From assembly GCA_049287305.1 (NCBI GenBank), contig JBAQFO010000014.1:453-64452 (forward strand): a DNA stretch of 64,000 nucleotides, written 5' to 3'. This DNA is from Minisyncoccia bacterium. Lineage in GTDB: Bacteria; Patescibacteriota; Minisyncoccia; Phycocordibacterales; UBA9973. Shown here one piece after another: positions 118 to 26,316 of this stretch. The notes under the pieces are model-generated. The model searched no databases. It was not told the DNA's origin and was given only the letters and a program-made list of their open reading frames with translations. The position numbers and the translations under genes were made by a program. The stretch's first letter is position 1. The number at the start of each line of letters is the position of its first letter.

Positions 118-249
118 ATGGATGATACACCCAATGTGGTAAAAAAAGTAAGCAAAACTTTTACTAATGCGCTTTTATTATTTGGAGCTTTTTTCTTATT
201 TATTTTTGCAACTTTTTATTTTATATTAATTCTTGCCACATCACGTTAA
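118..249 (+). CDS. Small hydrophobic C-terminal-anchored protein (43 aa if started at Met118; the ORF is open from 55). Hypothetical.
   Basis: ORF-track 55..249. The C-terminal half is a single hydrophobic helix (LLLFGAFFLFIFATFYFILILA). A hairpin plus T-run terminator follows directly. No clear SD. Confidence 0.25.
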   Translation: MDDTPNVVKKVSKTFTNALLLFGAFFLFIFATFYFILILATSR

Positions 250-255
250 ACTCCA

Positions 256-290
256 AAAACACCTCGCGCAAGCGGGGTGTTTTTTGTTAT
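256..290 (+). terminator. Rho-independent terminator-like hairpin plus T-run (ACACCtCGC-GCAA-GCGgGGTGT TTTTTG).
   Basis: Seen in sequence. A diverged copy of the same motif occurs at 1615-1650, and the GGGTGTTTTTTGTTA core recurs at 2225-2245. Confidence 0.5.
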
Positions 291-310: not shown

Positions 311-1051
311 ATGAATATTTCTATTTTTAATTTAAATTGCTGGCTTTTTCCATCACCGTTATCAACTGACTGTCTTAAAAGACTGTCTACAATAGTAAGT
401 ATGATTGAGGCGCAAAATCCTGAGATTGTTACATTACAAGAAGTATGGTCTAACAAGTATATTTTTTATCTTAAAAAGAGATTACCTCAGTATTTTTTTA
501 TTTCTTCCGAAACACTATTTTATAATCAGTCAGGCTTAGTGACTTTACTAAAACAGAAACCATTGCATCATCGGATTAAATTTTTCAAACTTTCGTTTCG
601 TCATAACTTAACCGAGATATTTTTTCATAAGGGGTATATTACAGCTAATATAGAAATAAACGGTGAAAAATGGACAATAGTAAATACGCACTTATATGCT
701 GCCTTTTCAAAGAAAACAGAAATAATAACCAGAGAGCAGTTTGACAACATTATCCTCACAGCGCAAGAGACCAGTGTTATCTTGAGCGGTGATCTAAATT
801 TGACTGAAGAAAAATTCAACCAAATTAACCAGGAAAAATTTTCCAGACTATGTGATTCGCAAATTACTTTAGGCGACCCTAATAATCCTTACGCATATAA
901 AAGATTTAATAAGTTTATGGTAAAAAATAAAAAAATTGATTATATGCTTTATTATTACAATAAGGCTCTCAATTCTAAGTATGAGATAGTTAAAACACCC
1001 TTTGTCTCTGACCATTATCCTATGTTTTGTAAAATAAATAACCCTCTGTGA
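311..1051 (+). CDS. Endonuclease/exonuclease/phosphatase (EEP) family protein.
   Basis: 246 aa. EEP-like motifs: NLNCW, TLQEVW, NTHLYA, SGDLNLTEE and a C-terminal SDHYPM. Confidence 0.65.
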   Translation: MNISIFNLNCWLFPSPLSTDCLKRLSTIVSMIEAQNPEIVTLQEVWSNKYIFYLKKRLPQYFFISSETLFYNQSGLVTLLKQKPLHHRIKFFKLSFRHNLTEIFFHKGYITANIEINGEKWTIVNTHLYAAFSKKTEIITREQFDNIILTAQETSVILSGDLNLTEEKFNQINQEKFSRLCDSQITLGDPNNPYAYKRFNKFMVKNKKIDYMLYYYNKALNSKYEIVKTPFVSDHYPMFCKINNPL

Positions 1052-1608
1052 ATACAATGCCAAAATTTTATCCGTCAAAATATATTATTTCAGTAGTCCT
1101 AATTTACTTATTTGTTTCTATCTATCTTTTCTTTTTTACAACATTGCCAGGGGCTGCTTTTGTTTTTCAGGCAAAAGACTTTCTATTATTTCTCCCTCTA
1201 TCTGTTTGTGCTTTTATTAGCTTATTTATAGCTAATAAATTAGTCCGTTTTGGAAATATATCTTTTAATAAAAAAAGCCTATTTCAAGCTTTGTTGATTA
1301 TTTTTTGTTACGGTCTCTTTATCGCTCTGCCCGAAGAACTAATTTTTAGAGGCCTTATTCAAAATAACTTGCAGGCTGTCTTAAGTCCAAGTTCGGCAAT
1401 AATTCTGTCATCTTTGATTTTTGGAGCGGTGCACTTATTAAACGGCGCCCGTAGCCTTCATTTAAAAGATTGGAACTGGAAACTAGTAGTTATGTCCTTC
1501 GTTGCTGGTCTTTTTTTGGGACTTGCTTATTTTTTAACTGGCAGCCTAACTGTGCCAATAATATTACATATTTTATTTGGACTTGTTATGAAAATATTTA
1601 TTAAATAG
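1048..1608 (+). CDS. CPBP-family (CAAX/Abi) intramembrane metalloprotease.
   Basis: 186 aa, multi-TM. Carries the EExxxR motif (PEELIFRGLIQ) and FxxxH (FGAVHLLN). Overlaps the previous gene by 4 nt. Confidence 0.65.
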   Translation: MNTMPKFYPSKYIISVVLIYLFVSIYLFFFTTLPGAAFVFQAKDFLLFLPLSVCAFISLFIANKLVRFGNISFNKKSLFQALLIIFCYGLFIALPEELIFRGLIQNNLQAVLSPSSAIILSSLIFGAVHLLNGARSLHLKDWNWKLVVMSFVAGLFLGLAYFLTGSLTVPIILHILFGLVMKIFIK

Positions 1609-1643
1609 TGATGTATACCTCGCGCAAGCGTGGCGTTTTTTGT

Positions 1644-1671
1644 TTGACAAATTGGATTTATATTGTAATAT
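1644..1671 (+). promoter_or_regulatory. Near-consensus sigma70-type promoter (TTGACA, 16 nt spacer, TAATAT) driving the GC-rich small ORF.
   Basis: TTGACA at 1644-1649 and TAATAT at 1666-1671. GGAGG lies 4 nt before the ATG at 1688. Confidence 0.5.
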
Positions 1672-1687
1672 TCTTTCTGGAGGCTAT

Positions 1688-1966
1688 ATGACCGTAGATG
1701 AACTGCGAAAGAGCGACCCCGACATGTTCCAACATCCCGAATTGAAGCCGAATGAGGTGCGTATCGGTTTCGTCGGGCCGGAAATCATCGACAATCACCT
1801 CGAGTGGTGGCACCAGCACGGGGTGCCGAGTGCGCGTCAGAGTGAAGGCACGACCCCGATCGAGTTCGAAGTCGGAAGCGATCGAGGTAAGCAGAAGGGG
1901 ATGATTCCCGTTCCAGCAATTCTCGGGGACGCGGCCGAGTATTGCAAGACCATTCGCGAGAAGTAG
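1688..1966 (+). CDS. GC-rich small ORF (92 aa) of unknown function; compositionally foreign.
   Basis: Local GC is far above the genome background. It has a GGAGG RBS and a consensus promoter. It is followed by a 9-bp-stem hairpin (GGCTGCATC...GATGCAGCC, 1973-2015). The antisense ORF 1658..2005 was judged a GC artefact. Confidence 0.4.
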   Translation: MTVDELRKSDPDMFQHPELKPNEVRIGFVGPEIIDNHLEWWHQHGVPSARQSEGTTPIEFEVGSDRGKQKGMIPVPAILGDAAEYCKTIREK

Positions 1967-2056
1967 TTCGATTCCGGCTGCATCATTGAGATGGACTTCA
2001 TCCATCCGGATGCAGCCTTCTCATTTCTGTAATATTTTTTGTGTTATAATTTTGGT

Positions 2057-2140
2057 ATGCTAAAAAGAGTCGGAATACTTCGCGGAGGGACGGGAGAAAA
2101 TTACCACAGCTCTATACGAAAGGGCGGGGAGATTTTGTAA
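2057..2140 (+). pseudogene. Duplicated, diverged remnant of the ddl promoter and 5' end; encodes MLKRVGILRGGTGENYHSSIRKGGEIL then a stop.
   Basis: About 85% nucleotide identity to the true ddl start at 2925-3035, including the upstream TATAAT box. It translates to 27 aa matching the Ddl N-terminus and ends at TAA 2138-2140. Confidence 0.6.
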
Positions 2141-2221
2141 ACTTGGACATCGGATGTCCAAGTTATAATCTGGAAAGACAGAAAACCTGTCCGTCTCAGG
2201 CGGGCTCCTAAAAACATCTCG

Positions 2222-2920
2222 ATGGAACTCAGGGTGTTTTTTGTTATTTTATCGGTATATAATGAATGCATGAAAGAAATATGGCCTGATGGTTCAATTT
2301 ATTTAAGTAAAAGTAATGGCAAGGATGGCTGGACTTATCGTCCAGAATTTAAAAATTGGCTGAAAGAACATCCACAAGCAATGTCCAAAGTGGTAAAACT
2401 TATAGACAAAATTATTCAAATTCCGCGAGCCGAAAGGAAAGGTGGAGAACAAGAGGGAGATGTTCAAGTCATTCCGTTCAACAGTCCTTATTCGGACATA
2501 TTTAAGGTTGTGGTGGGCTCGGATAAATTTTTTGTTAAACGTGACCAAGAACGTATGAATATATCGGGGGTTCCACCCGTAGGAGGACAAGTGGAATATT
2601 ATGGATCAGCCATAGCTAAAGAAGACTTAGGGGAGGATCCTGATGTGGAGATTATTGATTTTCAGTTGGCCTATACAAATAGAAGAGATTACAATAACCG
2701 TTTTGGATATTTTGTATCGCGATGGGAAGACCTCGAAACTATAGATAAATATTTAACTAATCCTGATCTAAGTTCTGCAGAAAAATCAGAAATAGAAGCA
2801 AAAATTCTAAGAGTGAAACGATTATTTTCAGCTTATCATGATGTTAAGCCTGAAAATATGTTCTATAACCCAAAGAACAAGAAGATAGTAATGTTCGATC
2901 TTAATATCCTTCAGTATTAA
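2222..2920 (+). CDS. Small protein-kinase-like domain protein (ePK-like catalytic loop); the real start may be Met at 2270.
   Basis: YHDVKPENMFYN matches the HRDLKPEN catalytic loop. A DLN (DFG-like) motif follows 14 residues later, and the protein ends soon after, like the minimal Bud32 / Kdo-kinase-type kinases. No SD found. Confidence 0.45.
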   Translation: MELRVFFVILSVYNECMKEIWPDGSIYLSKSNGKDGWTYRPEFKNWLKEHPQAMSKVVKLIDKIIQIPRAERKGGEQEGDVQVIPFNSPYSDIFKVVVGSDKFFVKRDQERMNISGVPPVGGQVEYYGSAIAKEDLGEDPDVEIIDFQLAYTNRRDYNNRFGYFVSRWEDLETIDKYLTNPDLSSAEKSEIEAKILRVKRLFSAYHDVKPENMFYNPKNKKIVMFDLNILQY

Positions 2921-2940
2921 CCATATGCTATAATTTAATT

Positions 2941-3891
2941 GTGCAATCAGTTACTAAAAAACGAGTTGGAATACTGCGCGGAGGGGAAGGGGAAAATTAT
3001 CACAGCTCGCTTAGAAAGGGCGGCGAAATTTTATCTCACATAACGGAAAATTTGGCGGAAAAATGGAAAGCTTATGATGTTTTGGTGGATAAAGATGGAG
3101 TTTGGCATATGGGTGGAGTTCCTATCCAGCCCGCGGATTTGATGCATCGGGTGGAAGTTGTGTGGAACACGGCGAATCCCGGTCTTTCGGTGACTCTTAA
3201 AAATTTATCTATTCCATATGTGGGACAGGAGCATTTTCATGGTGTGCTGGAAGATAGCAAAGAAATGCTTCAAAGGCATATGCAAAAAATTGGGCTTGAT
3301 ATGCCGCGTTCTTTGGTAATTCCTCTATACCAAGAAGATTTCGACGCCCGCCCGACTGAACAGTCGTTCGGGCGGGGTCCCATCTATGAATATGCTATTA
3401 AAAAAGCGAAAGAAGTGCACGAAAAATTTCCCGCTCCCTGGATGGTCAAATCCTACACCTTGGACAGAAACATGGGCATCCATTTGGCGAAAACTTTTTC
3501 CGAACTAGTGGATGCGATACAAGACGGGGTTAAGCACCAAAAAAGCATTTTAGTGGAAGAATTTATATCCGGTAAAATAGCTTCGGTGCATTCAGTGCCA
3601 GCGTTCCGCGGTGAGGATGTTTACACTTTTCCGCTGGGCAATACTTTTGGTATTTTTTCTTTGGCCGAGAAGGAGAAACTTGCTCTTTTGGCGAAAAAAT
3701 TACATCAACACATTGGCGCCGGTCACTATTTAAAATCCGATTTTATTTTAAACAGCAGAGGAAAAGTATATTTGCTTCAAATAGAATCCACTCCCGACCT
3801 TAAACCCGACTCGCATTTATCCGAATCCTGCAAGCTTTCCGGTGCTAAGATGCGCGACCTAGTAGACCACATTCTCGGAAGCGCTAACTAG
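2941..3891 (+). CDS. ddl: D-alanine--D-alanine ligase (ATP-grasp).
   Basis: The N-terminus RVGILRGGEGENYHSSLRKGGEIL resembles the Ddl N-terminal domain (VAVLFGG..SxEHEVSL). Length 316 aa. GTG start. Confidence 0.65.
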   Translation: MQSVTKKRVGILRGGEGENYHSSLRKGGEILSHITENLAEKWKAYDVLVDKDGVWHMGGVPIQPADLMHRVEVVWNTANPGLSVTLKNLSIPYVGQEHFHGVLEDSKEMLQRHMQKIGLDMPRSLVIPLYQEDFDARPTEQSFGRGPIYEYAIKKAKEVHEKFPAPWMVKSYTLDRNMGIHLAKTFSELVDAIQDGVKHQKSILVEEFISGKIASVHSVPAFRGEDVYTFPLGNTFGIFSLAEKEKLALLAKKLHQHIGAGHYLKSDFILNSRGKVYLLQIESTPDLKPDSHLSESCKLSGAKMRDLVDHILGSAN

Positions 3892-3926
3892 AAATTTTTT
3901 ATATTTTGATATAACTTATTACACAA

Positions 3927-3999
3927 GGGCCGTTAGCTCATTTGGTAGAGCGCATCCATGGCATGGATGAGGCGACCGGTTCGATCCCGGTACGGTCCA
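3927..3999 (+). tRNA. tRNA-Ala (anticodon GGC).
   Basis: Cloverleaf folded by hand. G3:U70 Ala identity pair. Anticodon loop ATGGCAT. T-loop TTCGATC. Confidence 0.8.
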
Positions 4000-4028
4000 C
4001 CCAAAGAAAGCTATGAGTTTTGATAAGG

Positions 4029-4059
4029 TTGCCAAATCAGCCGTAGTGTGCTTTAATAT
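4029..4059 (+). promoter_or_regulatory. Sigma70-like promoter (TTGCCA, 17 nt spacer, TTTAAT) upstream of the small zinc-ribbon ORF.
   Basis: Seen in sequence. Confidence 0.4.
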
Positions 4060-4074
4060 TTTCAGGAGGCAGTC

Positions 4075-4248
4075 ATGCCAAAAACCTTGTGTGAGTCGTG
4101 TATCACACGAGGGAGTCCGAAGCCCAATCCTGGACCTACTCCGTGTTTGGAGTGCCAAATCCGGGCCCAACCACCGGCAGCTCCTTTTGAGCCCGATTTG
4201 CCACCGTCGCAGACAGAAGTAAAACGCATCGGACGGGTGAAGGGATGA
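4075..4248 (+). CDS. 57-aa Pro-rich CxxC...CxxC zinc-ribbon mini-protein (MPKTLCESCITRGSPKPNPGPTPCLECQIRAQPPAAPFEPDLPPSQTEVKRIGRVKG). Alternatively the region could be a structured ncRNA.
   Basis: AGGAGG lies 5 nt before the ATG. There is an upstream promoter and a downstream GC hairpin terminator. It falls below the 60-aa ORF-track cutoff. Local GC is above background. Confidence 0.4.
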   Translation: MPKTLCESCITRGSPKPNPGPTPCLECQIRAQPPAAPFEPDLPPSQTEVKRIGRVKG

Positions 4249-4273
4249 GGGATAAGACTCTATCGTGTTCCAA

Positions 4274-4301
4274 GCCGCTGGATGGTCCGGCGGCTTTTTT
4301 C
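4274..4301 (+). terminator. Rho-independent terminator (GCCGCtGG...CCgGCGGC plus a T6 run).
   Basis: Seen in sequence. Confidence 0.6.
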
Positions 4302-4440
4302 TTGCATAAATATGATTTTCGTATATAATATATCTAAGCTTAAGTATCTATTTTGTATTTTCCTCCACATTTCCTCTCTCCAAGCTCTGTGGTTTTTGCC
4401 TTTTTAAGGTAGGTATTATTATTTATAAACAATTTTAGAA

Positions 4441-5796
4441 ATGACTCATTTAAATTTATTTGAAGCTTTAGGCTGGAAAAAAGGAATAGGGGAAGAAAGT
4501 GGGGCCTTGGCCCGAAGTTTACCCGAAGTTCATAAATCTGTTGCCGTTCCAGCGCACTACTCATTCTGGAGGAAACTACTTGTTTTTGCCGGACCGGGTT
4601 TTTTGGTGGCGGTGGGGTATATGGACCCAGGGAACTGGGCGACGGATTTGGCCGGAGGTTCCAAGTTCGGGTATACCCTGCTATCGGTCATTCTGATATC
4701 TAACTTTTTCGCCATGTTGCTCCAGCACCTGGCACTCAAGCTTGGGGTTGTTACGGGGAGGGACTTGGCGCAAATATGCCGCGAAAGGTATTCAAAGAAA
4801 ACAGCTATATTTTTGTGGCTAATGGCGGAGATAATGATAATAGCCTGTGACTTGGCGGAAGTGTTGGGCTCTGCTATCGCGCTTAATCTGCTATTTGGAA
4901 TTCCAATTATTGCCGGCGTAATAATTACTGCCCTGGATGTTCTTCTTATTCTTCTTTTACAAAATAAAGGCTTTCGTTACCTGGAGGCGGTGGTGATAAC
5001 TTTGATTGGAACCATTACCATGGCTTTCTTCGCTGAAATATTTTTATCTTCGCCGGAAATAATCCCGCTTCTTAAAGGATTCATTCCAACAACCCAGCTG
5101 GTTTTCAATTCGGAAATGCTTTACATAGCTATAGGTATCTTGGGAGCGACCGTCATGCCGCACAATTTGTATCTTCACTCTGCCGTGGTGCAAACCAGGA
5201 ACTACGAAGAAACAGAAAAAGGTAAAAAAGAGGCGATAAAATTTGCCACAATAGATTCCACAGTGGCATTAACTTTAGCGCTTTTTGTTAACGCGGCCAT
5301 ATTAATTGTTTCTGCCGCAGTTTTTTATTATCAGGGATACAACGACGTAGCAGAGATAGAGGAAGCCTTCAAGCTTCTCGCGCCACTCTTGGGAACGGGG
5401 CTTGCAAGCATTTTCTTCGCCGTCGCCCTTCTTGCTTCCGGGCAGAATTCCACGATTACGGGCACCTTAGCGGGACAAATTATAATGGAGGGTTTTATAA
5501 ACTTCAAGATACAGCCCTGGCTTCGCAGAATAATAACCAGGATGATGGCCATAGTTCCCGCGGTTATATTTATAGCAATTTATGGTTCGGATGGAGTAAC
5601 AGATTTGCTCATATTAAGCCAGGTTGTCTTAAGTATCCAGCTTTCTTTTGCGGTGTTCCCTTTAATAATGTTTACGGGTAGCAAGAAAGTGATGGGCGTC
5701 TTCGCGAATTCCAGGAAATTAAGCATATTTTCATGGATTATTGCCTTGATAATAGCTTCTCTTAATATATGGCTTCTGATTAGCATATTCAAATAG
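4441..5796 (+). CDS. mntH: Nramp-family divalent metal (Mn2+/Fe2+) transporter.
   Basis: GPGFLVAVGYMDPGNWATDLAGGS (the Nramp DPGN signature), MPHNLYLHS, about 11 TM segments, 451 aa. Confidence 0.9.
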   Translation: MTHLNLFEALGWKKGIGEESGALARSLPEVHKSVAVPAHYSFWRKLLVFAGPGFLVAVGYMDPGNWATDLAGGSKFGYTLLSVILISNFFAMLLQHLALKLGVVTGRDLAQICRERYSKKTAIFLWLMAEIMIIACDLAEVLGSAIALNLLFGIPIIAGVIITALDVLLILLLQNKGFRYLEAVVITLIGTITMAFFAEIFLSSPEIIPLLKGFIPTTQLVFNSEMLYIAIGILGATVMPHNLYLHSAVVQTRNYEETEKGKKEAIKFATIDSTVALTLALFVNAAILIVSAAVFYYQGYNDVAEIEEAFKLLAPLLGTGLASIFFAVALLASGQNSTITGTLAGQIIMEGFINFKIQPWLRRIITRMMAIVPAVIFIAIYGSDGVTDLLILSQVVLSIQLSFAVFPLIMFTGSKKVMGVFANSRKLSIFSWIIALIIASLNIWLLISIFK

Positions 5797-5940
5797 GGCT
5801 ATTTTTGTGCTATTCTGTATAGTGTTAAAACTTAATAAGTTTTAATTCAAATTACTTTTATCTGTAGCGGGTGATCGCACTCACATAGGCACATATGTTG
5901 GAGTTTCGCCATCACCCGCTTCAAATGGAAGTAATTTTTT

Positions 5941-5979
5941 AAACCCCACCACGCAAGTGATGGGGTTTTCGGTTTTTTA
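5941..5979 (+). terminator. Hairpin plus T-run terminator after mntH (AAACCCCA...TGGGGTTTT CGGTTTTTT).
   Basis: Seen in sequence. Confidence 0.5.
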
Positions 5980-6255
5980 GGAAAGTATTTTTTGGATTTT
6001 TAAGAATGGATATTTTTTTGTTAAAAAATTCCTCTTGTTCGTGCCAGTCGCGCTTGCAAGTCTTAAAAATCCAAAAGACACTTTCCTGAGTTATCCACAG
6101 TTTTGCCAAAAAAGTATTGTATTATGTTTTGATATGCGGGATAATTAATATGTTAGCGCAATAATAATTTAAAATATTTTCTTTAATTTATTTTTGGGAA
6201 AATATTTTATGGTCGTTTTATTGCAAACTAAATTAATAATTTTAATTAAAACATT

Positions 6256-6333
6256 ATGGCAGCAAAAAAGAAGGCAAAGAAAGTAGCAAAGAAGAAGCCA
6301 GCAAAGAAGGCTTCAAAGAAGAAGAGAGCTTAG
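6256..6333 (+). CDS. 25-aa lysine-rich mini-ORF (MAAKKKAKKVAKKKPAKKASKKKRA); speculative.
   Basis: ATG-to-TAG frame. It is followed directly by a strong terminator hairpin (AATTCCTCtCCGGAGGAATT plus a T-run, 6350-6386). No clear SD. Confidence 0.2.
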   Translation: MAAKKKAKKVAKKKPAKKASKKKRA

Positions 6334-6399
6334 TTCTTTTCCCACTTCAAGAAAAAATTCCTCTCCGGAGGAATTTTTTCGTTTTTATGCTAATATGTA

Positions 6400-8931
6400 G
6401 TGATGTCATTATTCAGCACGATGTTCGGCGACGAAAGCGCCAAATTCATCAAAAAAATAAGCCCAATAGTGGCTAAAATCAACTCCCTGGAGCTGGATAT
6501 TTCCGCTTTAAAAGACGAGGATTTTCCAAAGAAAACAGAGGAGTTTAAAGACCGCTTGGCAAAAGAGGAAACCCTGGATTCTTTGTTGCCGGAGGCTTTT
6601 GCTTTGGTGCGGGAGGCGGCCAAAAGAAACCTAAAGGAAAGGCATTACGATGTCCAACTTGTCGGAGGTATCGCTCTCCACTCCGGGAAAATTGCGGAGA
6701 TGAGAACAGGGGAAGGAAAAACTTTGGTGGCTGTTCTTCCTGCCTACCTAAACGCTCTCTCGGGAGAAGGGGTGCATATAGTCACCGTTAACGATTATCT
6801 GTCCCGTATCGGCGCAGTGCTAATGGGGCAGGTTTATAACTTTCTTGGGCTATCTGTCGGCGTTATTAACTCTCAAAACGTATCTTATTTATATGACTCC
6901 AAGCACACCGAGGAAGACAGAATGCGCGACCAAGTGGGAGAATTTAAAATTCTCTATGACTTTTTAAAACCATGCACAAGAAAAGAAGCTTACCTTGCGG
7001 ATATAACTTACGGCACCAACCACGAATACGGATTCGATTATTTGAGAGATAATTTGGCCACATCTATAAACGACCTGGTGCAAAGAGGGCATAGCTATGC
7101 GGTGGTGGACGAAGTTGACTCAATCCTCATTGACGAGGCGAGAACTCCGCTCATTATTTCTTCCCAGTCGGGCGACTCCGGGGATTTCTACGTTAAGTTT
7201 TATCAGATTGCAAAACAATTGAAGAGAGACACCGATTTTGAAGTAGATGAAAAACTAAGGGCTGTAACTTTGACCGATGAAGGTATCACCAAAGCAGAAC
7301 AACTCCTGGGAATTTCCAATATTTATACCGAAAAAGGTATAAAATATGTGCATCACTTGGAAACTGCGGTAAAAGCGCAGGCTCTTTTTGAACGGGATAA
7401 AGATTACGTGGTGAAAGAAGGGGAGGTAGTGATAGTTGACCCTTTTACCGGGAGGTTGCAGCCAGGCAGGCGCTGGAGCGAAGGCATCCACCAGGCGATA
7501 GAAGCCAAAGAAGGGGTAAAAATTGAGAAAGAAACTCGTTCGTCAGGGTCTATTACTTTTCAGAACTACTTTAGATTTTATAAAAAGCTATCCGGTATGA
7601 CCGGAACAGCCGCGACTTCAGCTGAGGAATTTTTAAAAGTTTATGGGCTGGATGTTATCGTTATCCCCACCAACCGTCCTATTGTCAGGAAAGATCTCAA
7701 CGATTTAATATTCCAAACGGAAAAAGGAAAATTTCAGGCTATCGCCAAAAAAGTGAAAGAATTGAATGAGAAAGGAACTCCGGTTTTGATTGGAACAATC
7801 TCCATTGAGAAAAACGAACTCCTGTCTGTTTACTTGAGGCAAGAAGGTGTTCAGCATACGATATTGAACGCGAAGAATCACGAGAAGGAGGGAGAAATTA
7901 TTGCTCAGGCCGGTAAGCGTAATGCGGTAACTATCGCCACCAACATGGCAGGACGCGGAATAGACATAAAGCTCGGCGGTAACCCTCAGAACAAAGAAGA
8001 ATACGAATTTGTAAAAAACGTTGGCGGGCTTTTTGTGCTCGGAACGGAACGTCACGAGGCGCGAAGAATTGACAACCAGCTAAGAGGTCGCGCGGGCCGG
8101 CAAGGAGATCCGGGAGCAACCCAATTTTACGTGTCGCTGGAAGATGACTTGATGCGGGTTTTCGGATCGGAAAAAATTAAAACCATGATGGGCCGTTTCG
8201 GAATTCCAGAAGATCAGCCTATAGAAAACTCGTTTATCGGCAGAACGCTGGAAGGAGCGCAGGCTAAAATTGAAGGATTCCACTTTGATTCCAGAAAACA
8301 TACCTTGGAATATGATGATGTCATGAACCATCAGCGCAAAATTGTCTACGAAAGAAGACAGAAGATGCTCCGAGCTGATAAAGAGGGCATAGAAGCTTTA
8401 CTTAAAGACATTGCGGAAACCAGAGAAGGATTAGAAAAAGTGATTGAAGAAAAAAGAAGCAAGGTGGGTGACGGAGCGTTCTTGGAAACAGTTCGCCGCA
8501 TTGCGCTTTATACGACAGATACCTTATGGATGGAGCACCTGGAGGCAATGGATTACCTACGCTCCTCGGTTAACTTGAGAGCATACGGACAAAGAGAGCC
8601 CATAGTAGAATACAAAAAAGAAGGGCTCGCGATGTTTAAGGAAATGGAAACAAACTTTAAGGAGCAGGTATCTTCTCTGGTTAGCACCATAAACACCGAT
8701 GTCCGCCCGGAGGCGGAGACAGCTGGCCCCAAGCAAACACTAGTTACCAGCCAAGAGAATCCGGATGAAAGTCTGGTTGCAGAAGAGAGAATCGTTCCTG
8801 GGAAGGAAGAAGTAGGCCGGAATGACCCGTGTCCTTGCGGAGCTATAAACTCCGCGACGGGAGAAGTGTTCAAATATAAAAAATGCGGACTGATTGACGC
8901 GCCTCAGCACAGGAAATCCCTCATAAACTAA
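6400..8931 (+). CDS. secA: Preprotein translocase ATPase SecA.
   Basis: 843 aa. DEAD-motor motifs: MRTGEGKTLVA, DEVDSILIDEARTPLIIS, TGTA, NMAGRGIDIKLGG, RGRAGRQGDPG. C-terminal Cys-rich zinc-binding tail (CPCG...KKCG). Confidence 0.95.
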   Translation: MMSLFSTMFGDESAKFIKKISPIVAKINSLELDISALKDEDFPKKTEEFKDRLAKEETLDSLLPEAFALVREAAKRNLKERHYDVQLVGGIALHSGKIAEMRTGEGKTLVAVLPAYLNALSGEGVHIVTVNDYLSRIGAVLMGQVYNFLGLSVGVINSQNVSYLYDSKHTEEDRMRDQVGEFKILYDFLKPCTRKEAYLADITYGTNHEYGFDYLRDNLATSINDLVQRGHSYAVVDEVDSILIDEARTPLIISSQSGDSGDFYVKFYQIAKQLKRDTDFEVDEKLRAVTLTDEGITKAEQLLGISNIYTEKGIKYVHHLETAVKAQALFERDKDYVVKEGEVVIVDPFTGRLQPGRRWSEGIHQAIEAKEGVKIEKETRSSGSITFQNYFRFYKKLSGMTGTAATSAEEFLKVYGLDVIVIPTNRPIVRKDLNDLIFQTEKGKFQAIAKKVKELNEKGTPVLIGTISIEKNELLSVYLRQEGVQHTILNAKNHEKEGEIIAQAGKRNAVTIATNMAGRGIDIKLGGNPQNKEEYEFVKNVGGLFVLGTERHEARRIDNQLRGRAGRQGDPGATQFYVSLEDDLMRVFGSEKIKTMMGRFGIPEDQPIENSFIGRTLEGAQAKIEGFHFDSRKHTLEYDDVMNHQRKIVYERRQKMLRADKEGIEALLKDIAETREGLEKVIEEKRSKVGDGAFLETVRRIALYTTDTLWMEHLEAMDYLRSSVNLRAYGQREPIVEYKKEGLAMFKEMETNFKEQVSSLVSTINTDVRPEAETAGPKQTLVTSQENPDESLVAEERIVPGKEEVGRNDPCPCGAINSATGEVFKYKKCGLIDAPQHRKSLIN

Positions 8932-17409: not shown

Positions 17410-19884
17410 ATGGCAAAACAGTCCAAGGAATCAAATGAAAAATTGGTAGGGGGAGACATGATTCTGCCTGTAGATGTGGTGGCGGAAATGAAGGAATCCT
17501 ATCTTGCTTACGCGATGTCGGTTATTACTTCGCGTGCTCTTCCCGACGTCAGAGACGGATTAAAGCCCGTGCACAGAAGGATATTGTTTGCGATGAACGA
17601 GCTCGGACTTACTTCTACAGCACGCTTCAGGAAATCTGCCGCAGTAGTGGGAGATGTGCTTGGAAAATACCATCCGCATGGAGATACTGCCGTATATGAT
17701 TCTATGGTGGGCATGGCGCAGGAATTTTCTTATCGCTATCCGCTAATTTTAGGCCAGGGAAACTTCGGTTCTATTGACGGAGACAATGCGGCAGCGATGC
17801 GTTATACGGAAGCCAAGATGGCAAAAATTTCAGGCGAACTTTTGCGCGACCTGGAAAAAGAAACCGTGGATTTTCGCCCAAACTACGACCAAACCAAGAA
17901 AGAGCCGGTGGTGTTTCCGGCTAGCGTGCCCGCACTTCTTTTAAACGGGACGCTCGGTATCGCCGTCGGTATGGCGACAAACATTCCTCCGCACAACTTG
18001 GCGGAAGTTTTGGATGCCACCATGCACCTGATAGATAACGAAGATGCGGCCACGGAGGATTTGATGCAATTCATAAAAGGGCCGGACTTCCCGACGGGAG
18101 GCATAGCCTTCGGCTCTAAAGACATGCTGCACGCGTATTCTTCCGGAAGAGGAGGGGTGGTTTGCAGGGGAGAGGCTGAAATTGTGGAACAGAAAGACGG
18201 GAATTTTTCGATAATCATTACTTCCATTCCTTTTAGGGTTAATAAATCAAATTTGATTGTAAGTATTGCCGAGCTGGTGCAGGAGAAAAAACTCGAAGGC
18301 ATCAAAGCTCTTCGGGATGAGTCCACCAAAGATATACGAGTGGTCATAGATTTAAAGCCGAGCGCTCACCCTGAAAAAGTTTTAAACTATATTTATAAAA
18401 ATACCCAGCTGGAATCAAATTTTAATTTCAACATGGTGGCGCTCGTGGACGGGGTTCCGGAAACTCTTTCTCTTAAATCCATACTTACGGAATTCATTTC
18501 CCACAGGCAGGACGTGGTAAAAAGGCGTTCAATATACGATTTAAGGAGAGCTGAAGAAAGGGAGCACATTTTGCTTGGACTCAAAAAAGCGCTGGATAAG
18601 ATAGATAAAGTTATTAGTGTTATCCGGGCTTCCAAAAATTCCCAAATAGCGAAATTAAATTTGATTAAAGAGTTCAAATTTTCAGATTTACAGGCGGCGG
18701 CTATTTTGGAAATGAAGCTTGCCAAGCTCGCGGGGTTGGAGCGAAAAGCAGTTGAAGACGAGCTTGCGGAAAAGCAAAAGTTTATTGCCATGATGAAAGA
18801 CCTTCTTGCAAGCCCTAAAAAAATCCTTAAGACTATATCCGCTGAACTTCAGGAAATTCGCGACAAATACGCGGATGAAAGAAGGACAAAAATAGTAAAA
18901 GGCGGAGTAAAAGAAATTTCCGACGAAGACTTGGTGCCTGAGAAAGAAACGGTTTTGGTGCTGACGGCCGGAGGATACGTAAAATGCACCGACCCTTCCG
19001 AATATCGCTCTCAGAAAAGAGGAGGGGTGGGAGTTATTGACCTTGAAACCAAGGAAGAAGATTTCGTGACGATGCTAGTTTCAGGTTCCACTCACAGCAA
19101 TCTTCTTTTCTTTACAAACCTCGGCAAGGTATATCAGATGAAAATGTATGATATCCCGGAAGGCCGGCGCGCCACTCGCGGGAAATCAATTATGAATTTC
19201 TTACAGCTATCTGGAGAGGAAAAAGTAAATTCAATTCTAGCGATGCCGAAAGACTTAAGCAAAGTCCCGTCTTCGCTCATGCTTGTAACCAAGCATGGCA
19301 CGGTAAAGAAAATGGCGACTGAAAGTTTCAAAGATGTGAGAAGAAGTGGGATTATCGCTATCCGTTTGGACAAAGATGACCAGCTTATTTCCGCCTTGGT
19401 TACCGAAAAAGGAGAAGAAGTAATGATGGCTACGGCTCAGGGGCAATCCATAAGATTCAAAGAGTCCGATGTAAGGGAAATGGGCAGGACGGCAGGCGGA
19501 GTTACCGGCATGAGACTTGGCAAAGGGGATGAGGTTATTGGCGTTGATGTCATAAAAAATAATCAGCAAAAAGATCAAAAGCAAGGGTATTTCTTAACTA
19601 TGAGCGATAATGGTTTCGGCAAAAAAACAAGCCTAAAAGAATACAAGGTGCAAAAGCGCGGAGGCTCCGGAATAAAAACAGCTAAGGTTACATCCAAAAC
19701 CGGGAAACTGATAGTAGCCAAAGTTTTGACCGGTGAAGAAGAAGAGCTTATTGCCATGTCCAAGAAAGGACAAGTTATCAGAACGGCTCTAAATAATATT
19801 TCTTCTTTGGGACGTCAAACACAGGGTGTGACTATCATGCGCCTACGCACGGGAGATTCCATCGCTTCTCTCGCCTGCATCTAG
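17410..19884 (+). CDS. gyrA: DNA gyrase subunit A.
   Basis: [29 protein letters not shown], the active-site region, C-terminal beta-pinwheel repeats and a GyrA-box-like QKRGGVGV. 824 aa. Confidence 0.9.
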
Positions 19885-24095: not shown

Positions 24096-24130
24096 AAAAG
24101 GCGTCCCGAGAGCGGGACGCCTTTTTGTTT
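24096..24130. terminator. GC-rich bidirectional terminator (GGCGTCCCG-AGA-CGGGACGCC flanked by T-runs on both strands).
   Basis: Perfect 9-bp stem. It sits exactly at the boundary between the pilin array (plus strand) and the high-GC operon (minus strand). Confidence 0.7.
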
Positions 24131-24200
24131 TCTTTGCGTGGCCAGCGCGATGTTCTAGAAAGCATCCTCCTGGTGCTTCCTGGCCGTTTGAAGAACATGA

Positions 24201-25250
24201 CTAAGCGCAACGTCCCCCACCTGGATAAATCCGGAAGGAGACATGCCCATTTTCAGGGTCGTTCGGGTCCCAAAACTTCTTGGCACCAGACCGCTGAGGT
24301 TCGGGGAGCTGCGAGCAGTCGTCCCCGGGGGTGAACAGGAAGGGCTTCTGCCCGGGATACTGCACCATGATCGGGGCGTCAGCTTCGAGGCTGAACGCGT
24401 AATCGGCAGTGACTTCCGTGGGCGTCATCTTCCTGATCTTCGACGGGAGCGACTTGGCGTGCTCCTGTCTCGGTGCGTTCTCACGAGCCTGAGGGGCTTG
24501 AGAGGACGGCGCCGGTGCTGCCTGTGCGGTGGAAGAGGCCGAACCTCCACCACCGAACCAGTAACGGTAGAACCTCCGCCACCAAGTCGGGATGACCCCG
24601 GCTTCTTCCTGGTTAGCGGACTTACCGCCGACCAGGGTGGTGGCACCATCTACGACTACGGGGACGACACCGCGTTCCGAGAACGCGGTGTCGGTGCTGG
24701 CGTGAGTCAGTTTGCCGCTCGCATCGAGCGGCAGAACGTTCTTGGCCGTGTGCGGCATGTTGAGAAGCAAGAACGTTACAACCGCAGCCGTGCCGAAGAT
24801 CCAACCTGCGACCTTCTTGTTGCCGCGACCGAACTCAGTGGCGACCCATCCGGCAATGAATGCCGCACAGGTCCAAAGGATGAGGTCAATGGCGATATGA
24901 CTCTGCCAGAACCAAACCCTACGGCCGAGATCGTCAAAATGATAAAACGCGTAGGCGTTCGAGACGCCCGTCACGCGCACCGCGATCATCATGACGCCGA
25001 CCCACACCATCAACATCAGGAAGAAGTCCTTGATGGCTCCGAAGAAGCCCTTCCGGCTTCCGCCGCCTCCGCCTCCGGCAGTTGCACCACCGGTGGTGGT
25101 GAAGTGAGACAGAAAACCCTTCCCCTTGGTGGCCAGGAACCAGACTCCGAGGAGTCCGATTACTGCCATGGGGAAGGAGATGGCGGGAAACTTCGTTGAC
25201 ACCCAGTAGGCGAGAAGTGCGACGGCTCCAGCTTCAATCAGTAGAATCAT
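24201..25250 (-). CDS. High-GC integral membrane protein of unknown function (N-terminal TM helices, Gly-rich linker, Trp-rich C-terminal half).
   Basis: 349 aa. GC about 58-60% against about 39% background. RBS AAAGGAA upstream. Last gene of a three-gene minus-strand operon. The antisense 318-aa ORF was rejected. Confidence 0.5.
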   Translation of the reverse strand: MILLIEAGAVALLAYWVSTKFPAISFPMAVIGLLGVWFLATKGKGFLSHFTTTGGATAGGGGGGSRKGFFGAIKDFFLMLMVWVGVMMIAVRVTGVSNAYAFYHFDDLGRRVWFWQSHIAIDLILWTCAAFIAGWVATEFGRGNKKVAGWIFGTAAVVTFLLLNMPHTAKNVLPLDASGKLTHASTDTAFSERGVVPVVVDGATTLVGGKSANQEEAGVIPTWWRRFYRYWFGGGGSASSTAQAAPAPSSQAPQARENAPRQEHAKSLPSKIRKMTPTEVTADYAFSLEADAPIMVQYPGQKPFLFTPGDDCSQLPEPQRSGAKKFWDPNDPENGHVSFRIYPGGGRCA

Positions 25251-25322
25251 GGGATGTTTTTCCTTTCAAATCAGTTACGGAGCGGGAAGCTCAGGTGAAC
25301 CCCCGCTCCTTGGTTTGTTTAC

Positions 25323-25757
25323 TTACGGCCAGTCCTTCGACCCGCCGTCCTTCGTTGGGTCGATAGGGCCCTTGAATCTCGTGGCTTCCGGAGTGTCTTT
25401 TCCGACGAACTCCTTGGCCTTTTCCTTGTAGGGGATTGACTTGGCCCAGTCAATCGCCTCACCGAGGGCTCCGCTAACTCCGTCGAGGTTCAGCTTGAAC
25501 CTCTCCTTCGCTTCGCTCTTCCTCGTCTCAAGGAGGGTTTCCAGCTTAGTCAGCTGTTCCTCCGAGAGGTCTTCCACGTCCGCCTGCGCGTGCAGGCTGA
25601 TGAGGTCCTCGATGTCGCTGACGAGCTTCTTCGCGTCGTCGGCGGTGTTGACCGGCCTCTTTTCAAGGTCCTCGATCGCGTCATCCGGGCCGTATCCACA
25701 GCCCGACAGCGAAAGGAGAACCAGCATCATGAGAGTTGCGAACGTTTTCAGTTTCAT
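25323..25757 (-). CDS. High-GC lipoprotein (signal peptide plus LSGC lipobox), acidic and helical.
   Basis: MKLKTFATLMMLVLLSLSGCG is a type II signal peptide. RBS GGAAGGAG. 144 aa. Confidence 0.5.
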   Translation of the reverse strand: MKLKTFATLMMLVLLSLSGCGYGPDDAIEDLEKRPVNTADDAKKLVSDIEDLISLHAQADVEDLSEEQLTKLETLLETRKSEAKERFKLNLDGVSGALGEAIDWAKSIPYKEKAKEFVGKDTPEATRFKGPIDPTKDGGSKDWP

Positions 25758-25773
25758 GTCGTCGTCTCCTTCC

Positions 25774-26316
25774 TTACTTTGACTGTGCTTTCAAGAACGT
25801 CTTCAGCATCTTCATCGTCTTTCTGGCCTCCAGCCAGTTGTCGACGAAAGACACCGGTCCGGCGATGATGGTCCAGAAGAGGGAATTCCAAAAGACTTTC
25901 CCCCAACTACCGTCACACCCGAAGTAGAACCCACGAATCCCTCGGCACGCATACGGGTTGTAGCCCGTTTTCTTTGCCGATGACGATCCGAAGAGCCAAT
26001 CCAGAGGATTGATATCCACGACGGGCTTGCCATTGAGGCCGATGTACCACATGGCGCCCGACAGAACAGTGAGACCGAGCAGGGCCCAGAAGACCCAGTC
26101 GTTGTCGGAGATGAGCGGGAGAAATTGCTCCCGCAATTTCTCGTCGTCTTCCTTCAGAAACCAGGCGATGACGACGAGGATGAGCATCATGACGACGATG
26201 GCGGTAACCTGAAACGCGGCGTAGCCGTATTTCAGAGAAACCGCCAAGAAGATGATGGTGAGAACCCACTTAAGCATACCAGTGGGCTCAGGCTTCGCAA
26301 TGTTTGTCACACCCAT
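25774..26316 (-). CDS. High-GC membrane protein of unknown function.
   Basis: 180 aa with 3-4 TM segments. RBS AAGGAG 7 nt upstream. The 5' UTR contains a perfect hairpin CACCTCT-TTCGG-AGAGGTG (26337-26360). Confidence 0.5.
   Translation of the reverse strand: MGVTNIAKPEPTGMLKWVLTIIFLAVSLKYGYAAFQVTAIVVMMLILVVIAWFLKEDDEKLREQFLPLISDNDWVFWALLGLTVLSGAMWYIGLNGKPVVDINPLDWLFGSSSAKKTGYNPYACRGIRGFYFGCDGSWGKVFWNSLFWTIIAGPVSFVDNWLEARKTMKMLKTFLKAQSK

Follow-up and report, generated by a model that had tools for sequence, protein, structure and literature searches.

How does a gene come to be preceded by a truncated version of its own 5' end and by a row of unrelated genes? The candidate phyla radiation (CPR), or Patescibacteria, has tiny genomes with few recognisable mobile elements, and its gene gain is poorly understood; the locus described here is a concrete, testable example. 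We analysed a 64,000-nucleotide (nt) stretch (the window) of contig JBAQFO010000014.1 from a metagenome-assembled genome of Minisyncoccia (GCA_049287305.1), in which a gene for a Ddl-like ligase (ddl) lies behind a 27-codon ddl fragment (the stub, or ddl'), several accessory genes, and repeated copies of a terminator-like hairpin (T). An earlier reading of this DNA, referred to as the original prediction, had seen a single cassette or phage moron that duplicated its target on insertion. We propose instead that the array between T and ddl, including the module of a kinase-like gene, was probably, with real room for doubt, built by successive recombination with DNA of related lineages, with the 16S rRNA side as the anchor and an illegitimate joint at the opposite end.

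The array between the 16S rRNA gene and ddl

The window sequence is identical to contig JBAQNI010000002.1 (GCA_049303715.1) from position 496 onward. On the upstream-extended contig of the window genome (L012, on which coordinates of the first T copy and of the native trailer are given), the sequence opens in the 3' end of a 16S rRNA gene (positions 1401-1533 of the Rfam small-subunit rRNA model), followed by a trailer of about 250 nt, terminator hairpin T0, and a gene for a 105-amino-acid (aa) membrane protein, inside which the window starts. From there the order is T1, a gene of the endonuclease/exonuclease/phosphatase (EEP) family, a CPBP protease gene, a partial T2, a 92-aa gene (WAV15_03480) with its hairpin, ddl', a trailer remnant, a decayed T3, a kinase-like gene, and ddl (WAV15_03490) (Table 1). 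Five genes and four T copies lie between the 16S trailer and ddl. The guanine-plus-cytosine (GC) content of the modules is 0.30 to 0.32, 0.57, and 0.36, compared to 0.44 for ddl and the Nramp gene and a window mean of 0.417.

Table 1. Features of the array and of related loci (window coordinates unless a contig is named)
Feature	Position	Strand	Details
T0, intact	L012 366-406; 89-129 nt upstream of window start		Follows 16S trailer
T1, intact 16S rRNA terminator copy (AAACTCCAAAAACACCTCGCGCAAGCGGGGTGTTTTTTGTT)	248-288	+	41/41 nt same as T0
Module 1 cargo: endonuclease/exonuclease/phosphatase-family gene	311-1051	+	Pfam PF03372; GC 0.30
Module 1 cargo: CPBP/Rce1-like protease gene	1048-1608	+	Pfam PF02517; GC 0.32
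T2, partial, decayed	1617-1644	+	Left arm missing; right arm with two substitutions
Promoter and ribosome-binding site of 92-aa gene	1644-1683	+	TTGACA 1644-1649, 16 nt, TAATAT 1666-1671; GGAGG 1679-1683
92-aa GC-rich gene	1688-1966	+	GC 0.57; by codon position 0.62/0.39/0.70
Hairpin terminator of 92-aa gene	1976-2017	+	-24.6 kcal/mol, z = -4.0; then TTCTCATTTCTG
ddl' stub	2042-2140	+	Extended -10 TGTTATAAT 2042-2050, 6 nt, ATG 2057, 27 codons, stop 2138-2140
16S rRNA trailer remnant	2138-2203	+	Holds ATAATCTGGAAAGACAGAAAA and palindrome 2140-2164
T3, most decayed (CTCCTAAAAACATCTCG...AGGGTGTTTTTTGTTAT)	2204-2246	+	16-nt right arm identical to 275-290; left arm recognisable
Kinase-like gene	2258-2920	+	TATAAT 2258-2263, 6 nt, ATG 2270, 216 codons, stop 2918-2920
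Functional ddl-like ATP-grasp ligase gene	2926-3891	+	Extended -10 TGCTATAAT 2926-2934, 6 nt, GTG 2941; 316 aa
TATAAT-N6-start sites	2045-2059, 2258-2272, 2929-2943; L017 385-397		
Hairpin repeat of L001 (CCTCACCCC..CCCCTCTCC...GGAGAGGGG)	L001 3910-3952, 4617-4659, 5043-5068		

Two ddl 5' ends of apparently different descent

The stub open reading frame (ORF; 2057-2140) encodes MLKRVGILRGGTGENYHSSIRKGGEIL followed by a stop, as originally described. Its likeness to ddl had been put at about 85% over about 100 nt; the repeat exists but is a gapless 75 nt (2062-2136 versus 2958-3032) at 81% identity (80% when codon aligned). A duplicated ddl promoter had also been claimed, and this holds only to the extent that the copies share the extended -10 element (TGTTATAAT and TGCTATAAT) and the TATAAT-N6-start spacing; upstream of the repeat there is no further likeness.

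Across the 25 codons that the stub and the resident ddl have in common, there are 12 synonymous and 3 nonsynonymous changes, giving proportions of synonymous (pS) and nonsynonymous (pN) differences of 0.65 and 0.053 (pN/pS, 0.08). The data reject a model in which both copies diverged neutrally (Fisher p = 2e-7) as well as neutral decay of one copy alone (p = 0.0016), and the pS is comparable to the third-position divergence of ddl orthologues across lineages (0.51 to 0.55). The stub is 88% identical to the ddl of relative L011 and 80% identical to the resident ddl. In L017, ddl naturally begins in the same way as the stub, with M(L/Q)KRVGILRGG, and the T tail and ddl start of L017 align with the stub's promoter and start; the short N terminus (MLKRVG...) recurs in a second stub, in L004. 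Both 5' ends appear to have evolved inside working ddl genes of different lineages. That the differences are nearly all synonymous and that the stub is nearer to the L011 ddl argue against the in situ duplication of the target in the original prediction, and two ends from different lineages would imply recombination between lineages.

Directly behind the stub, the trailer remnant aligns with the native trailer (L012 283-365) and with that of L009, the block ATAATCTGGAAAGACAGAAAA being identical; remnant and T3 together (2138-2246) are 62% identical to L012 283-406. The palindrome in the remnant has an 11-bp stem (-13.9 kcal/mol; z = -4.1). The stub end (...GGGGAGATTTTGT) and the trailer (native form ...GGTGGAGTTTGTTTAAACTT) meet at a microhomology, GGAG(A)TTT(T)GT, and the joint creates the stub's stop codon. 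The whole would amount to a full unit of trailer, T, gene, and ddl joined to the cut end of another unit of T, gene, and ddl.

Terminator copies that decay with distance from the 16S rRNA gene

A terminator-like motif, GGGTGTTTTTTGTT, had been reported three times around the insertion. We find it at 275-288, 1631-1644, and 2232-2245, and these make up three of the four matches in the whole 64 kb, where chance alone would give 1.3, but only the first still folds, and a fourth copy of the element lies upstream of the window. The full T sequence is restricted to the first 2.3 kb of the 64 kb, which rules out T as a generic genome-wide terminator. The element AAAAACACCTCGCGCAAGCGGGGTGTTTTTT follows the 16S trailer in L009/L010, L004, L016, and L017, and the short contig L011 opens with T; in L012, L009, and L017, T sits about 250 nt past the 16S 3' end. 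From this position in relatives, T appears to be the terminator downstream of the 16S rRNA gene, and by its fold it presumably ends transcription there.

T1 folds into a 13-bp stem with a GCAA loop followed by TTTTTT (-19.6 kcal/mol; z = -5.85), and its tail runs into GTTATAAT. As such, T1 (like the identical T0) has the GC-rich hairpin, U-tract, and position at the end of a transcription unit of an intrinsic terminator, which T2 and T3 lack. T2 begins 8 nt past the CPBP stop codon and is 93% identical to 261-288, but its stable fold is lost (-7.4 kcal/mol; z = 0.63); it is homologous to the T that precedes the 92-aa gene in L004. The fold of T3 is no better than that of shuffled sequences (z = -0.02). 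Overall, the copies form a gradient of decay with distance from the 16S rRNA gene, from T0 and T1, which are the same, through T2, truncated and with two substitutions, to T3. As a separate observation, the T hairpin loop of L004 (217-275) holds a nested 32-nt insertion with the palindrome GCACTTATGTATAAGTGC, flanked by a GCAAGC repeat, and the compound hairpin is very stable (-42 kcal/mol; z = -7.5).

A variable interval in related lineages

Relatives were located through their Ddl proteins (635 homologues at E <= 1e-30, the nearest 73% identical). They share the frame of 16S rRNA gene, trailer, T, ddl, ..., SecA, ..., Mur ligase and carry a single T only. Between T and ddl there are no genes in L017, one small gene in L011 and in L016, three genes in L009/L010, and five in the window genome. 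In L017, GTTATAAT comes straight after T and the ddl ATG 6 nt later, so that in this minimal form the ddl promoter is the T tail plus GTTATAAT. The range of 0, 1, 3, or 5 genes marks the interval as an apparent hotspot for gene gain in the clade, of which the window genome has the largest array seen. Since the hotspot sits where metagenomic contigs break, it is easily missed. The EEP and CPBP genes were found between T and ddl in none of the relatives examined. The idea of an insertion before ddl stands, as relatives show either the 92-aa gene beside an intact ddl (L005/L006/L008) or T beside ddl (L017). Comparing the ddl locus across relatives, as the original prediction had advised, shows that presence of the insert varies.

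A second, apparently independent case comes from L004 (684-1185), where a truncated ddl of 32 codons follows the 92-aa module. Past this stub there is a TTGACA-N18-TATACT promoter overlapping a perfect 22-nt palindrome and then a Gp49/HigB-like toxin gene; the contig stops before showing whether an intact ddl comes next.

The resident ddl product matches Pfam PF07478 at 50.5 bits (cutoff, 24) and scores 66 bits against the NCBIfam Ddl models, far below their cutoff of 246. It is best called a Ddl-like ATP-grasp ligase, and its gene is kept beside the SecA and Mur ligase genes in relatives. We also considered whether the resident ddl is itself a foreign allele. Its identity to relatives (0.69 to 0.73) is in line with that of Mur ligase (0.71 to 0.78), so that it is no outlier; SecA identity (0.84 to 0.89) is above both in all pairs.

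The stub, the kinase-like gene, and ddl share a leaderless-type geometry, with TATAAT exactly 6 nt before the start and no Shine-Dalgarno sequence. The compositionally foreign 92-aa gene differs in having a classical -35/-10 promoter plus a GGAGG site.

Proposed origin of the array

RecA-dependent recombination needs tens of identical bases and drops steeply with divergence. In a comparison of the window genome with L009, identity is 100% for the 16S end and 94% for the trailer, and exact runs reach 123 nt, compared to 69.5% identity and a longest exact run of 18 nt for ddl. Given the identity that RecA needs, only the 16S side could serve as an anchor between such lineages. In the sequence of events that we favour, incoming DNA with the order 16S rRNA gene, trailer, T, X, and so on would pair on the nearly invariant 16S/trailer/T side, and its far end would be joined illegitimately in or just upstream of the recipient T (homology-facilitated illegitimate recombination). 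Each event would set a new module of T plus one or more genes beside the 16S rRNA gene, while older modules and their decaying T copies would shift toward ddl. The ddl stub would be the right-hand end of the incoming DNA that brought the 92-aa gene, joined at the GGAG/TTTGT microhomology to the recipient 16S trailer about 65 nt upstream of the present T3. Because new modules arrive beside the 16S rRNA gene and push older ones toward ddl, the kinase-like gene would be the oldest module and not the newest.

Four things follow from this scheme, and all four are seen: new modules beside the 16S rRNA gene, a T before each module, decay with distance, and imprecise right-hand joints. Of these joints, one is 7 nt upstream of T1, one falls within the T2 left arm, and one precedes T3 by about 65 nt. 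The locus also seems to combine the traits by which illegitimate recombination is recognised, namely, microhomology at the joint, a diverged incoming allele, and a highly similar anchor. Lineages whose ddl genes are 70% identical share 96 to 100% identity on the 16S/trailer side. The array cannot well be a single cassette, as had been supposed, since the 92-aa and kinase-like genes sit in separate modules and the recurring motif is the apparent 16S terminator and not an element boundary. If the scheme holds, the rRNA gene itself may supply the homology needed to recombine with DNA of quite distant relatives.

Anchored illegitimate recombination is known in transformable bacteria and has been proposed for arrays of the Vibrio cholerae type VI secretion system (T6SS) (PMC5361080). 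The mechanism is thus of a known kind, with an unusual anchor in an rRNA gene. Like the T6SS orphan immunity arrays of V. cholerae and the orphan toxin ends of Rhs and contact-dependent inhibition (CDI) systems (PMC5361080), the locus has a one-sided conserved anchor, insertion beside that anchor, older modules displaced downstream, truncated leftovers of flanking genes, and no dedicated recombinase. Unlike in those arrays, the anchor is the 16S rRNA gene with its trailer and terminator, the cargo is miscellaneous instead of effector-immunity pairs, and the mechanism is deduced from the scars of a single genome. Elements that bring a replacement end for their target gene, such as those that integrate at tRNA or protein-gene ends, are alike in leaving a stub, in keeping the gene intact, and in the two differing ends; unlike such integrative elements, our locus has no integrase, att core, or element genes, and the stub would be the incoming piece if our preferred reading is correct.

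Several points weigh against recombination between lineages as set out here. Only about seven related lineages were inspected, mostly on short contigs, and no donor genome turned up with T, the kinase-like gene, and ddl, or T, EEP, and CPBP, in that order. Sliding-window identity of ddl to L011 and L009 gave no clear breakpoint of a mosaic gene. The order and direction of events are inferred from the gradient of T decay and the quality of the anchor alone, and the same final structure would arise from Campbell-type integration of a circular intermediate or from unequal exchange. Natural transformation and illegitimate recombination are presumed for this clade, with the competence of Patescibacteria taken from the literature. 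Finally, one homologue of the kinase-like gene is bracketed by hairpin repeats in another genome (L001), which leaves room for a hairpin-directed mechanism.

The closest competitor is a tandem duplication in situ, from the 16S trailer to ddl codon 27, by unequal exchange at GGAG/TTTGT with later divergence and replacement of cargo. The trailer, T, and the ddl 5' end do each occur twice in the same order, and the same microhomology could have served an unequal sister-strand exchange. However, the stub differences, almost purely synonymous and saturated, are unexpected for a pseudogene; the stub is nearer to another lineage's ddl than to the resident one; the cargo of the two copies is wholly different (GC of 0.57 versus 0.36); and T0/T1 and the EEP-CPBP module are left unexplained, so that we regard such a duplication as unlikely. 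An assembly chimera, in which strain alleles of a hypervariable locus were concatenated at the repeated T and ddl sequences, would fit the metagenomic origin of the genome, the repeats at the locus, and the contig end in the adjoining 16S rRNA gene. Yet a Logan assembly, produced by another assembler, matches window positions 464 to 5885 exactly and spans T2, the stub, T3, and ddl, which argues that the array is not an artefact. The critical joints have about 5 to 10 nt of similarity, far below any assembly k-mer, and the repeat copies are 62 to 93% identical except for T0/T1. We consider a chimera hardly credible.

The same low credence goes to the origin suspected at first, a phage moron or self-mobile element whose insertion duplicated the ddl target. 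The accessory genes with their own promoters and the direct repeats on both sides would suit such an element, but it would be less than 900 nt long with one gene unrelated to mobility, and the supposed duplication is of 75 nt or more and was not copied from local sequence. Neither the 92-aa nor the kinase-like protein shows phage, plasmid, or defence similarity in PHROGs, PADLOC, GenBank phages, or IMG/VR (or in PLSDB for the 92-aa protein), save for one weak partial match in PHROGs (E = 0.006, residues 1 to 52), and there is no integrase or transposase among the genes called within 11.5 kb. Site-specific capture of cassettes, with the T hairpin as the recombination site of an integron-like or hairpin-directed system downstream of the 16S rRNA gene, is improbable, if less so than a phage origin. 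It would make sense of four hairpin copies that each precede one gene or a gene pair under a promoter of its own, of the palindromic insertion nested in the L004 T between GCAAGC repeats, and of the L001 homologue, which a different hairpin repeat flanks on both sides. T, the 43-nt repeat of L001, and other hairpins of the terminator type would then be the recombination sites of an unknown CPR mechanism of cassette capture, a proposal to which we give equally little weight. If true, the region past the 16S rRNA gene would act as a dedicated landing pad for stacking foreign genes, each bringing a portable leaderless promoter made up of the T tail, TATAAT, N6, and the start codon. Integron arrays are indeed alike in having tandem genes each with an imperfect palindrome and the newest gene apparently at one fixed end. 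Unlike in integrons, the hairpins here share sequence and not structure only, fragments of flanking genes are included, and every module has its own promoter; by eye, the T tail GTTATAA misfits the GTTRRRY consensus. No integrase or other recombinase is present among the genes called within 11.5 kb, the joints are imprecise and all different, a ddl stub with a trailer remnant is not what site-specific exchange would leave, relatives have a single T, and T occurs nowhere else in the 64 kb.

The GC-rich 92-aa gene

All that had been said of the 92-aa ORF, from its high GC and the TTGACA-16-TAATAT promoter to the GGAGG site and the following hairpin, is borne out. Its promoter is the best sigma-70-like match in the region (10/12) and is conserved in L004, where the hairpin is 100% identical; in L005 the hairpin is replaced by another hairpin plus a T-run. 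Substitutions in the gene are concentrated at third codon positions (13/8/25 and 16/11/34 by codon position). Together with the third-position GC of 0.70, the lack of an Rfam match, and the lack of covariation, this argues that the ORF is protein coding, with a composition that looks foreign to the window genome. We rejected two other readings of the same DNA. As a noncoding RNA, the region has no Rfam match, and its RNAalifold covariation term is positive (penalising), with many broken pairs. An antisense 115-aa ORF (1658-2005) is open in three lineages, but its most variable positions are its own first codon positions, as expected of a GC-rich artefact.

The gene is known from three lineages only, in each directly upstream of a ddl start. 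The ddl that follows is intact in L005/L006/L008 (contigs from Hainich groundwater) and truncated in the window and L004. Identity between the window and L004 is about 90% from the T right arm through the gene, hairpin, and ddl promoter and falls to 63% within the ddl stub. Between the window and L005, third-position divergence is 0.28 for the 92-aa gene versus 0.54 for the adjacent ddl, which suggests that the module moved between lineages after they split. The gene is separate from the insertion of the kinase-like gene, the two being distinct modules. The 92-aa protein has no match in Pfam, NCBIfam, PHROGs, PADLOC, GenBank phages, IMG/VR, or PLSDB plasmids and a single nonsignificant match in the PDB (E = 0.07). 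A hit in a Bacteroidota contig (L007) is spurious, as it lies out of frame within a glycosyltransferase gene.

A small kinase-like protein family

The 232-aa ORF (2222-2920) that had been taken for a minimal protein kinase exists but is over-extended. Both close homologues begin at Met17, and the first 16 codons translate T3 and the promoter; the gene is therefore 2270-2920 and encodes 216 aa. A word-index search gave only two homologues, and a profile search of 1.84 billion representatives gave 280 family proteins at E <= 1e-3 (146 at E <= 1e-10); among the best 150 of the 280, almost all are 200 to 250 aa long. The protein has no Pfam match at E <= 1 and no NCBIfam match, and Bud32, RIO, and KdkA are absent among the Pfam families listed for the 73 members scanned (25 of the 46 matched). 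The proteins thus seem to form an unannotated, undescribed family of 200 to 250 aa, for which structure prediction suggests a protein-kinase-like fold.

From an alignment of 73 family members, AlphaFold2 gave a model of the 216-aa protein with a predicted local distance difference test (pLDDT) score of 93.2 and a predicted TM-score (pTM) of 0.89; an earlier model from three sequences was poor (pLDDT, 61) and was not used. A Foldseek search of the PDB with the model returned 286 chains at E <= 1e-3, and the best 50 of these 286 are all protein kinases or COQ8A (probability, 1.00; query TM-score [TMq], 0.35 to 0.50). In BFVD, an ABC1 atypical kinase came first, and the great majority of the best 50 listed are kinases. 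The top TM-scores, 0.50, belong to COQ8A and a viral ABC1 protein.

The model shows the elements of a bilobal kinase: a five-stranded N-lobe sheet, helix C, hinge, helix E, catalytic loop, and beta-hairpin. Five residues are highly conserved in the family: K90 (72/73), E109 (71/73), D191 (61/73, plus 10 Glu), N196 (69/73), and D210 (73/73). K90 lies in strand 85-92, E109 in helix 107-120, D191 and N196 in the loop before strand 197-200, and D210 after strand 205-208, which are the expected positions in the model of the beta3 Lys, the helix C Glu, the catalytic Asp and Asn, and the Asp of DFG. Both YHDVKPEN and FDLN, the motifs that prompted the kinase assignment, are present in the window protein. 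The His and KPE of the former are not conserved in the family, and the likeness to HRDLKPEN is therefore partly chance. The kinase-like assignment accordingly stands on the predicted fold but not on that motif or on Pfam and NCBIfam, and assignment to a Bud32 or Kdo-kinase type falls, as no family model matches and the KPE of HDVKPEN is not conserved. The profile search against kinase families that had been proposed as a check gives no significant match (COQ8A, E = 0.76), and it is the structural search that finds kinases.

The window protein ends 6 residues after D210, and the median tail of the family is 9 residues. With the chain ending so soon, the helical C-lobe (helices F to I) would be missing as a family trait; neither it nor an activation segment is present in the AlphaFold2 model or family alignment. 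Confidence that the modelled protein has a kinase fold is high. Confidence in its activity as a putative ATP-dependent phosphotransferase that has dispensed with a substrate-binding C-lobe is low to moderate. With that lobe missing, its substrate would be a small molecule or nucleotide, or else a partner would be required. UbiB/ABC1/COQ8, Bud32, RIO, and KdkA share with the family the architecture of N-lobe, helix C, and catalytic loop and the set of Lys, Glu, Asp...Asn, and Mg-binding Asp, as well as the lack of an activation segment. COQ8/ABC1 has the best TM-scores, and COQ8A is also among the only subthreshold sequence matches. The family differs from these atypical kinases in the absence of helices F to I and in an N-terminal extension of about 55 residues with conserved Tyr and Phe, and models of UbiB/ABC1, Bud32, RIO, and KdkA in Pfam and NCBIfam do not match it. 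If active, the protein would be among the smallest kinase-like enzymes known, a kinase fold reduced to its nucleotide-binding half, and the family would help to define what the fold minimally requires.

Other results count against this assignment. The Foldseek TM-scores are only 0.35 to 0.50. The PDB profile match to COQ8A, although it covers the catalytic loop and DFG, is nonsignificant (E = 0.76 to 1.2), and alignment of the family with PknB and PKA by hhalign, although in the right register (HRDxKPxN and DFG), gave a probability below 3%, which is not evidence of a link. The putative equivalence to kinase residues follows from secondary-structure position and nonsignificant alignments.

No functional tie of the kinase-like gene to ddl was seen. 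Homologues occur in unrelated, accessory contexts: after recA; beside a beta-lactamase and a NUDIX gene; and beside TraG-like, Phd/ParE, NDK, and CYTH genes. In Candidatus Spechtbacteria (P0025/P0277; OGZ62512.1), one family member is fused at its C terminus to a cREC_REC domain (PF20274; E = 9e-19). For cREC domains, processing of cyclic phosphates or of nucleotides derived from ADP-ribose has been proposed (PMC7824862), and the fusion, together with the NUDIX, NDK, and CYTH genes near other homologues (L002 and L013), hints at a nucleotide or cyclic-phosphate context. In L001, where recA and efp are the neighbours of homologue P0002, two direct copies (86% identical) of the 43-nt hairpin repeat flank the gene, the downstream one also repeating CTATGA.AG around the start codon; a third copy is inverted and follows a neighbouring DUF559 gene. 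Homologues in L002 and L013 have no such repeats around them. Directly upstream of P0008 in L013, there are tandem repeats with an 8-nt period (TTTAAATMTT; 4898-4945), and the gene's neighbours are a 23S_rRNA_IVP-family gene, a TraG-like gene, and a Phd/ParE pair.

Other observations around the locus

In L009/L010, the 16S rRNA gene that precedes the trailer and T has a LAGLIDADG intron. In L009 this is an insertion of about 1 kb near the 16S 3' end (1488-2540) that encodes a LAGLIDADG endonuclease and includes an Rfam match to group II intron D1-D4 (1762-1875).

The interval between ddl and SecA is variable too, as shown by comparing window positions 3892 to 6400 with L009, L016, L017, and the contig of P0159. 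It holds SodC; a glyoxalase plus SodC; nothing; or, in the window genome, a tRNA-Ala gene, a 57-aa ORF, and Nramp, and resembles a second hotspot that flanks ddl on its far side. A GC-rich islet (4013-4300; GC up to 0.565) directly follows tRNA-Ala(GGC) (3927-4001) and contains the Pro/Cys-rich 57-aa ORF (4075-4248) and a strong terminator (4272-4296). The GC of this ORF by codon position (0.57/0.60/0.50) is atypical for coding sequence, it matches no family, and it is in the Logan gene list (L003) but absent from that of NCBI (L012). The largest GC-rich island of the window (24100-26300; GC of at least 0.54 over about 2 kb) holds three genes on the minus strand whose hypothetical products (349, 144, and 180 aa) would be membrane or secreted proteins, and lesser GC peaks occur at 17900-18150 and 55600-55800.

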